NCBI GenBank assembly: GCA_964016885.1
Contig: OZ024754.1
Span: 43,958,001 to 44,022,000 of the forward strand
From: Eledone cirrhosa
Taxonomy: Eukaryota
Reading direction: 5' to 3'
DNA: 64,000 nucleotides
In this document: one piece after another, positions 13,579 through 15,559 of the stretch
Layout of the letters: every line of letters starts with the position of its first letter
Position numbering within the stretch: the first letter of the stretch is position 1
The notes under the pieces: model-generated
Database searches by the model: none
What the model saw: only the letters and a program-made list of their open reading frames with translations
What the model was told of the DNA's origin: nothing
Position numbers and translations under genes: made by a program

Positions 13579-14143
13579 GCCGGTATTTATGTGGAACAGG
13601 AAAAGAAAGAAACGGTGTAGACGGAAATTAGTTCACAAATAACAAAAGTAGCGACTGTTTAGTGATATGAAGGGAAGTAATTCGCGATGTACTATTAAAA
13701 TATCTTTGTTGTCGACGTGTATTACAATTGGTGTTGCAATAACTACTTTTCCTGTCTACTTCGACTGTTGCTATGACAAGCCACCAGACAGAATAACTTT
13801 TTTCCTGCTGCTAGCCAGTTGTGTGTCGATGGTGGTGAGTAGGGATATGCAGTTATATAAAGAAACTAGAAGGCAAATATCTGTCAACGACACCAGTTCT
13901 AGCAGACATAATAAAAACAAATACTACTATACGGATTATGTTATACAAAACGTATTATATATATATATATATATATATATATATATATATATATATATAT
14001 ATATATATATATATAATGTAGGAGGTGAGTTTTATTGTAGTACAATAAAGCAATGCAGATATCGGATAAGAAGCACTCTACAGCTTGTAGGACTGGAGTA
14101 TACATAATATATAAGATCAAAAGATGGTTAAAGGAGTTCCATG

Positions 14144-14214
14144 TATTTTATTATGCGCATTTCAAAAACAAACATCATCATGCAATAATATTTGTGTTTT
14201 CATCAGATAAAACA
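14144..14214 (-). ncRNA. Type I hammerhead ribozyme motif, mirror copy of 14402-14472
   Basis: Exact reverse complement of the + strand motif, in the left arm of a ~178-bp inverted repeat. Confidence 0.78.
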
Positions 14215-14401
14215 GGAGGACATGATATGAAGGCTAAAAAACACTTGTGGATAGTGCAGTTTTAAATCAGCATATGAGAAGTAATTTTAGATTGATGTGT
14301 GATATTGGGAAAAATATTTTATTTAGAGAGATTACTTCTCATATGGTGATTTAAAACTGCACTATCCACAAGTGTTTTTTAGCCTTCATATCATGTCCTC
14401 C

Positions 14402-14472
14402 TGTTTTATCTGATGAAAACACAAATATTATTGCATGATGATGTTTGTTTTTGAAATGCGCATAATAAAATA
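14402..14472 (+). ncRNA. Type I hammerhead ribozyme motif (apparently intact)
   Basis: Stem I TTTTAT/ATAAAA; core CTGATGA 14410-14416; long stem II (ACAAATATTATT-gcat-GATGATGTTTGT); GAAA 14453-14456; palindromic stem III ATGCGCAT; predicted cleavage after AUA at 14464. Confidence 0.8.
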
Positions 14473-14502
14473 CATGGAACTCCTTTAACCGTCTTTTGAT
14501 CT

Positions 14503-14740
14503 TATATATATATATATATATATATATATATATATATATATATATATATATATATATATATATATATATATATATATATATATATATATATATATATATA
14601 TATATATATATATATATATATATATATATATATATATATATATATATATATATATATATATATATATATATATATATATATATATATATATATATATATA
14701 TATATATATATATATATATATATATATATATATATATATA
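14503..14740. repeat. (TA)n microsatellite, ~240 bp
   Basis: Perfect TA run. Confidence 0.98.
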
Positions 14741-14787
14741 TTCAAAATATTAACAAAATAGATATTCTTGTGATCAATTATGTTTTA

Positions 14788-14976
14788 TTATTGTGGATTG
14801 GCAGTATCGGTAGAGGGTCGGACGCCATGCTTTGACGCATAGAGTTACGGCCCTTTCCATTCTGAGTTCAAATCCCGCCGAGGTTAACTTTGCCTTTCAT
14901 CCTTACGTGGTCGATAAAATAAAGTACCAGTAATGCACTGGGTAATTACTGGCCTTGTGCCAAAGGTAGAAACAAT
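14788..14976 (+). mobile_element. tRNA-derived SINE with Meta-like central domain (abundant family)
   Basis: A-box TGGCAGTATCGGTAGAG, B-box GAGTTCAAATCC, core GCCTTTCATCCTTAC..GGTCGATAAAATAAAGTACCAGT. More copies at ~20637-20850, 21535-21655, 32880-33180, 38425-38618, 43455-43640, 45980-46212, 49440-50020 (-), 62165-62360, 62690-63130. Confidence 0.85.
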
Positions 14977-15140
14977 TATACATATTTCAGAAGTACTGAA
15001 TTAAGTTCAACAGTACGTCCTCATCAGATAAAATAAAATGATACATGACATACCCTGACATAGTAGATGGTTACGATTTAATCAAGGTATTTGATTAAAT
15101 CTTAACCATCTACCATGTCAGGGTATGTCATGTGTCATTT

Positions 15141-15205
15141 TATTTTATCTGATGAGGACGTACTGTTGAACTTAATTCAGTACTTCTGAAATATGTATAA
15201 AATAT
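15141..15205 (+). ncRNA. Type I hammerhead-like motif with weak stem I
   Basis: CTGATGA 15149-15155; stem II GGACGTACTG/CAGTACTTCT; GAAA 15188-15191; near-palindromic stem III ATATGTAT; AUA triplet. Mirror copy on - strand at about 14978-15035. Confidence 0.6.
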
Positions 15206-15559
15206 AATTGATCACAAAAATATCTATTTTGTTAATATTTTTAATTAATATTAATAACTCTGGAAAACATTTTACTGTAGAGTGCTTCCAATCTATTGTA
15301 AAACTCATTCTTTGATGTATTCATTGAATCTTGTTTAACTCTTAAATATATATATATATATATATATATATATATATATATATATATATATATATATATA
15401 TTTATATATCTCAAGTATGGTCATTTGGTACCCGGTAATAGCCATTAGACTCATACCAAGGTAGAGCTGATCTCTTCTGAGTATCGAACATCACTTGGTA
15501 TCGATACCTCCCAGATGGGTATCAATACGAGAAGCGATGGTTAAACTTGAGCGGGTGGT

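Follow-up and report, generated by a model that had tools for sequence, protein, structure and literature searches.

The two fold-backs A and B of the 64,000-nt window analyzed here (C14:43958001-44022000 of a 3.0-Gb animal genome) are best explained as two independent, 5'-truncated, tail-out inverted insertions of Hydra-type Penelope-like elements (PLEs) into one (TA)n tract, each likely made by two-ended priming, a reading to which we give a probability of about 0.8. The only named protein homolog comes from Argonauta, which suggests that the host is an octopod. The locus itself is ordinary transposon debris, and its value lies in the copy statistics of the families. How PLEs acquire inverted repeats and a tail on one side only is listed as an unsolved question in the accessible text on the Hydra clade (Craig et al. 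2021, PMC8557442), and the A and B copy data point to a candidate RNA motif and start site.

The two adjacent inverted-repeat elements of the original prediction are both real fold-backs. Element A spans 14017-14502, between a (TA)n target tract on its left (13956-14016) and a (TA)119.5 tract common to A and B (14503-14741), which corresponds to the run of about 240 bp expected between them. Its arms, described beforehand as about 178 bp long with 2 mismatches, measure 179 nt (14107-14285 and 14331-14509) and are 99% complementary. The tailed, distal-end arm, a putative Hydra-type pLTR, lies on the minus strand at 14017-14330 and includes an apparent 45-nt spacer that is additional 5' sequence of this left arm and not a loop. 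Its tail, a stretch of about 90 nt from one 3' end site (proximal) to the other (distal), occupies 14017-14106 (minus strand), with the conserved motif at 14070-14083, and the tail-less, proximal-end arm lies head-to-head with it on the plus strand (14331-14502). Element B, beyond the (TA)119.5 run, is composed of a tail-less minus-strand arm (14742-15088) and a tailed plus-strand arm (15089-15345), followed by an (AT)n target tract (15346-15409). The tail-less arm is interrupted by an abundant 182-bp SINE (14793-14974, plus strand), overlooked in the original prediction, with A- and B-box-like motifs, a 5-bp duplication (14787-14791 and 14975-14979) and about 25 further matches within the window. 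The B tail lies at about 15255-15345 (plus strand) with its motif at 15275-15288, and the 14-nt motif is identical at 14 of 14 positions between A (14070) and B (15275), as the mirrored tail motif noticed earlier had implied. A further near-perfect inverted repeat, with arms of about 40 bp and adjoining TA runs, is present at 16985-17070 of the window, and related sequence was found beside TA tracts at other loci.

Exact 20-mers of the hammerhead core occur 14,969 times (A) and 6,389 times (B) in the 3-Gb genome, while reversed-pattern control 20-mers gave 0 matches, so the motifs are not due to chance. Longer copies of A and B extend upstream into coding sequence with an ORF whose reverse transcriptase (RT) is telomerase-like, which bears out the suggested PLE origin and the proposed linkage of genome-wide copies to a PLE RT. 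One locus (L089) holds a whole A unit, with a pLTR carrying hammerhead and tail, an 808-aa open frame, a 3' UTR of about 1 kb and a second pLTR terminating in (TA)n; at another (L066), B arms stand on either side of a broken ORF in the same layout. That A and B are PLEs is nearly certain: they are the 5'-truncated pLTR ends of two autonomous families, and not the non-coding, retrozyme-type elements first proposed. The inverted partial pLTR of the original prediction was recovered as pLTRs in partial tandem with an inverted 5'-truncated copy and a tail at one end. The best 80 matches to the A protein are all at least 90% identical and many have open frames above 800 aa, which indicates that family A is young. 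In contigs from four sequencing runs and three organisms, the A arm and tail are covered and depth drops past about 14273, contig depth being unable to show ends or copy number.

The proteins of A and B share 53% identity over 301 aa. The predicted structure (pLDDT 82.5) has telomerase RT as its best fold match (E 1e-7; Z 16.0, rmsd 2.8, 252 aligned). Both families carry the Hydra DKT motif as SDKTNNLY, and the N-terminal RW is found at the expected place (RRLRWI in A, RRMRWR in B), the K of RWK not being kept. The Hydra cysteine motifs are CNCPVKNKC for CxCX5C and CNLC..EK..N..CLH for CxxC/CxH in A, and CNCRNKPDC and CLH in B, where the first C of CxxC is absent in the one degenerate copy read. 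Pfam searches of five PLE ORF pieces gave no match, and PDB sequence searches with the protein and with a profile gave 0 matches. For a GIY-YIG endonuclease the support is indirect: the query itself had no Pfam match, and among 29 aligned sequences 2 had one (best E 1.3e-4); the endonuclease region folded by itself reached a pLDDT of 39, and fold lists for the whole model were filled by the RT domain. Taken together, the two families very probably belong to the Hydra type. A first guess, Naiad, was rejected, since the RT comes first in the domain order and the motif is DKT rather than DKA. Residues of about 589-663 of the L089 ORF form a low-complexity asparagine-rich insert between the RT thumb and the endonuclease linker; N-rich inserts are reported in the accessible text on rotifer Penelopes (PMC3846280).

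In the accessible text on Hydra-clade PLEs (PMC8557442), elements such as Hydra-1_Obim and Penelope-13_HM resemble A and B in having an RT with a C-terminal cysteine-rich endonuclease region, the DKT, RW, CxCX5C and CxxC/CxH motifs (compared by eye with the printed sequences), a hammerhead near the 3' end and (TA)n targeting, and an inverted 5'-truncated copy is listed for Penelope-13_HM. The hammerhead listed for Hydra-1_Obim is unlike that of A or B, making A and B different families. Further differences from the clade as described there are a unit of about 3.7 kb against "generally <3 kb", a tail of about 90 nt against 30-40 bp, a longer stem II whose C.Y mismatch at position 4 is conserved, and a stem III that forms an even palindrome of 8 nt.

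Four hammerhead ribozymes had been predicted at the locus: the two of A are intact, whereas both of B are broken. The A ribozymes lie at 14144-14214 on the minus strand (C3 at 14206, predicted cut 14152/14151) and at 14402-14472 on the plus strand (C3 at 14410, predicted cut 14464/14465), and each arm carries a full type I core with an 8-bp stem I, CUGAUGA, a long stem II, GAAA, AUGCGCAU and an AUA site. In the right arm of B the core (15149-15199) lacks 3 nt at the cut site relative to family copies, leaving a stem I of 1 bp, and in the left arm the SINE splits the hammerhead at its cut site, the core (15027-14985) standing without the 3' strand of stem I. A core-plus-stems scan of both strands of the whole window gave five matches, among them the two A arms and none in B, because of these two lesions; CUGANGA, GAAA and NUH with covariation-backed stems were likewise found in element A and not in element B. 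Searching Rfam over 13000-16500 at E<=1, a check suggested at the outset, returned 7 matches, all sub-threshold to miRNA hairpin models and none to a hammerhead family.

Covariation of the stems across genomic copies, also suggested as a check, was found. We aligned 15 hammerheads from about seven related families found in the flanks: 95.4% of alignment cells were paired, 6 pairs were compensatory and 0 of 500 shuffles scored as high, a control that relatedness can inflate, slid registers reaching only 34-60% paired. Compensatory changes affect 5 of the 7 pairs of stem II, stem I shows one-sided changes only, and the C.Y mismatch at the fourth position of stem II is kept in 15 of 15. The 8 nt of stem III form a palindrome, with C-G, U-A or U-G as the central pair; since this pair is impossible in a hairpin, its variation points to a dimer, in line with the dimer-type palindromic stem III proposed at first. 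The covariation thus supports a fold in which the palindromic stem III would pair only in a dimer, and two copies of 14386-14480 co-fold into a dimeric ribozyme at -42.1 kcal/mol, versus 2 x -15.0 for the monomers. Together the families add more than 21,000 hammerhead motifs of a shape undetected here by Rfam 15, with dimer-only covariation in stem III. Transcription from either strand had been proposed to give a ribozyme plus its own antisense arm; however, whichever strand of a tail-out fold-back is read, its antisense arm comes first, so a long duplex is expected (the whole of element A folds as a single one, at -318 kcal/mol) and the A ribozymes at the window locus are predicted to be masked.

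We then considered how such fold-backs arise, using copies sampled by position on contig C1, namely 60 A loci (from the first 100 matches, covering 60 of their 64 clusters) and 27 B loci (from the first 30). Four overlapping duplicates were left out (L114, L120, L132 and L017), and junction counts were made also without L007, which has a complex junction, and L006, a duplicate of L003. L003 and L006 (C4:13.79 Mb and 14.57 Mb) are near-identical A copies with identical flanks, a segmental duplication or assembly duplicate. Counting the window, arms terminate at one of two 3' sites about 90 nt apart in 106 of 110 cases for A and 46 of 48 for B, and most A ends run into (TA)n (48/51 distal, 35/42 proximal), confirming the (TA)n targeting anticipated earlier. 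Among the first 100 A matches, 33 neighbor pairs were tail-out, 1 was tail-in and 2 were on the same strand. Results showed a near-strict rule: in 54 of the 55 tail-out pairs with both ends classified (41+13), one arm was tailed and the other tail-less (p 3e-15 against 50:50), the remaining pair having two tail-less arms and no pair having two tails; in five more tail-out pairs an end was unclassified or ran on. The two window elements, A and B, follow this rule.

A self-priming or snap-back origin, in which one strand (cDNA or antisense RNA) folds and copies itself into the inverted arm, has been proposed for rotifer Penelopes, according to the accessible text (PMC3846280). Such an origin agrees with several features of our sample, as many junctions are short palindromes, both arms begin at a common position in 17 of 53 pairs, the tail-less arm is contained in the tailed one in 8, and the arms are nearly identical. 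A fold-back copy must nevertheless lie within its template arm, and in 23 of the 53 pairs the tail-less arm extends further 5' than the tailed one, 10 of these having arms without overlap, meaning that neither arm is a copy of the other. Self-priming is therefore contradicted as a general route and we regard it as improbable, although it could still explain a minority of pairs. As for arm similarity, the two arms of an insertion show 1.2 differences per 140 nt, compared with 6.3 for arms of separate loci, which holds for short as well as for long pairs; in 6 of 34 pairs the arms differ at 3-6 sites. The copies compared are consistent with one donor per insertion, and the identity could come partly from gene conversion. 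Fold-backs with one tail are likely the trace of two separate primings, one on either side of a single DNA cut, and two-ended priming as such seems to us reasonably probable. Self-priming and internal initiation, as presented in the accessible texts (PMC3846280, PMC11167929), are told apart by the nearly strict rule of one tail per pair, by arms that are not nested, and by the G-marked 5' start described below.

The sample also bears on whether A and B could be non-autonomous, retrozyme- or MITE-like elements spreading alone as short hairpin units. Short fold-backs are common, 20 of the 33 tail-out pairs lying less than 300 bp apart, and retrozymes are reported, in the available part of one source, as derived from PLE pLTRs (10.64898/2026.07.22.740005). 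Against this, the locus holds no tandem hammerhead repeat, junctions and apex vary between copies with no fixed internal structure, and the two ends are unlike, with a tail on one only, and hence are not terminal inverted repeats (TIRs). The TIR ends of a DNA transposon, which had been named as an observation that would speak against a PLE, were not seen. Moreover, the mean difference of short arms is 1.0 from long copies and 1.1 among themselves, diagnostic variants are common to both, and near-identical counterparts of short arms are found in long copies (ORF-linked or read-through), so the sample shows no separate retrozyme lineage. Non-LTR retrozymes do resemble A and B in that their short repeats hold type I hammerheads, with some cleaving as dimers, and in the PLE pLTR link (accessible parts of PMC7229834 and 10.64898/2026.07.22.740005), but as described in the former they are head-to-tail tandem repeats expressed as circles, while A and B are head-to-head pairs. 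Neither tandem head-to-tail repeats nor an ORF-less lineage, as in retrozymes, nor identical terminal inverted repeats with a fixed internal structure, as in MITE or foldback elements, were found for A and B. We consider independent spread marginally less probable even than self-priming, and retain truncated insertions of autonomous PLEs as the preferred reading.

The 5' ends of the arms give information about the template. In family A, 55 arms begin at -73 to -68 from C3, with eight more being alignment overshoots at that junction, and 39 are scattered over -62 to +152, none of them within 20 nt of the hammerhead cut (+55); B arm starts peak near -64, and in both families the start is the A of TCA. 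The base before the start in read-through copies is C in 42 of 43 and G in 0 of 43, while a G precedes the start in 20 of 56 A arms stopping there, versus 5 of 39 controls (p 0.017). By hand count, 9 of these 20 extra G's could also be templated or read off the partner arm and 11 are not from the partner; in B only 2 of 12 arms have a G. An additional 5' G is characteristic of a cap being reverse transcribed, or of a C being added terminally. The B family has a TATA box beginning 31 nt before the start, and no canonical TATA was found at -31 in family A. The short-arm start about 65-70 nt upstream of the ribozyme, together with the extra G, suggests a capped template. Among 15 ORF-joined copies (of 20 fetched), 0 start at the -70 site and three run past it; hence the capped species may differ from the mRNA and be instead a short transcript of the pLTR. 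The window A arms themselves also extend past this site. One ORF-joined copy (L199, ~1248) begins exactly at the predicted hammerhead cut, and cleaved RNA may thus sometimes be used as template. In three other ORF-joined copies (L198, L140 and L210) the sequence begins right at the tail's distal end (+192 to +197), which would fit a long cDNA stalling at the upstream tail site.

From these observations we propose a route for two-ended priming. The RT-endonuclease would bind the tail RNA of about 90 nt and cut both (TA)n strands; the two DNA ends would prime on opposite sides of the tail, one immediately upstream and one immediately downstream of it. The resulting cDNAs would both copy uncleaved sense RNA of one donor 5'-ward, often to a capped start about 65-70 nt upstream of the ribozyme, and would be joined head-to-head via 0-4 nt of microhomology or added bases. 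The hammerhead would be a pLTR passenger, with cleavage predicted only as a dimer, for example between the two pLTRs of a full transcript, and B would have decayed afterwards. The tail motif TGTNGAGTGCT is common to about seven families and TGTNGAGT.CT is invariant across 11 tails; RNAalifold on these 11 gave no consensus structure, and a possible ACTC/GAGT pairing is invariant and so lacks covariation support. Judging from this conservation, the motif is the best candidate for a protein-binding signal. A stronger version, which we hold tentatively and rate a little short of even, is that the copies form a genome-scale record of PLE insertion, in which an asymmetric RT-endonuclease dimer clamps the motif on one capped RNA, with one of the two target ends primed to either side of it, so that every insertion would be born head-to-head with exactly one tail. 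This would overturn self-priming and would seed thousands of near-perfect 150-250 bp hairpins feeding RNA editing or small-RNA silencing.

The closest biochemical parallel is Poseidon PAc of Anolis, for which the accessible text reports that in vitro both strands are cut and extended, from two internal start sites bounding the tail, with uncleaved RNA used (PMC11167929). As there reported, it shares with A and B the two internal RT starts bounding the tail and an AT-rich target, and hammerhead cleavage is unnecessary for its insertion. It differs in belonging to another PLE clade and in its start sites, which in vitro did not differ between strands, a finding that counts against strict asymmetry in the PAc system; the copies of A and B have one site per end. 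The tail of A and B also lies in non-coding sequence upstream of the ATG, unlike that of PAc (PMC11167929). In the literature consulted, mostly without subscription papers, we found no strict one-tail rule or cap-like G for PLEs, a scope that does not establish their absence from print.

Related families were encountered along the way. At least five more pLTR families (L113, L125, L071, L018, L133, L070, L164, L171 and L179) with a like hammerhead shape and tail motif occupy TA tracts adjoining A or B copies. A third Hydra-like family (G000 C1:437201932-437213196 and elsewhere) has many protein-identical copies with 784-aa open frames in 3.53-kb head-to-tail arrays and seems to be active at present; the 1.5 kb adjoining its ORF end showed no hammerhead. 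For two Hydra-like ORF families other than A and B, 0 of 24 loci had a hammerhead and tail of their own within 1.5 kb of the match. Other PLE types are nested beside A copies at L064 (~2200-4400) and L075 (~6350-7430), with ORFs bearing GIY-YIG-like motifs, one of them as an inverted pair.

Finally, we asked whether the cluster could have been retained as a regulator of TRMT61A, as a promoter element or as a self-cleaving or dsRNA-forming upstream RNA. The first coding exon of this gene, the neighbor outside the elements, lies at 13230-13578 on the minus strand (lower boundary approximate) with its ATG at 13578, and both exons tested match Pfam GCD14. The elements are 439-1767 bp from the start codon, so the predicted distance of about 0.5-1.7 kb upstream stands, but nothing ties them to the gene. 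Such a role would fit this position and the intact hammerheads of A. However, 97 of 100 sampled A arms carry an intact hammerhead as well, so that intactness reflects youth, B is broken twice, and other A, B and related copies are often found in common TA tracts. Since an A or B motif occurs about every 140 kb of genome and TA targeting is shared, many genes should have such a cluster near their start codon, and the one near TRMT61A is unremarkable; a regulatory role is the least probable of the alternatives considered, the proximity is likely due to chance, and the locus is likely neutral for TRMT61A. TRMT61A (window 9527-13578, minus strand) has in its last exon a 24-bp tandem repeat of 11.5 copies (9684-9959), which codes for a DKQETNE-type insertion in the C-terminal part of the protein. 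On the plus strand, opposite to TRMT61A, exons at about 37038-44052 of the window were recognized by eye as those of an asparaginase/ankyrin (ASPG-like) gene.
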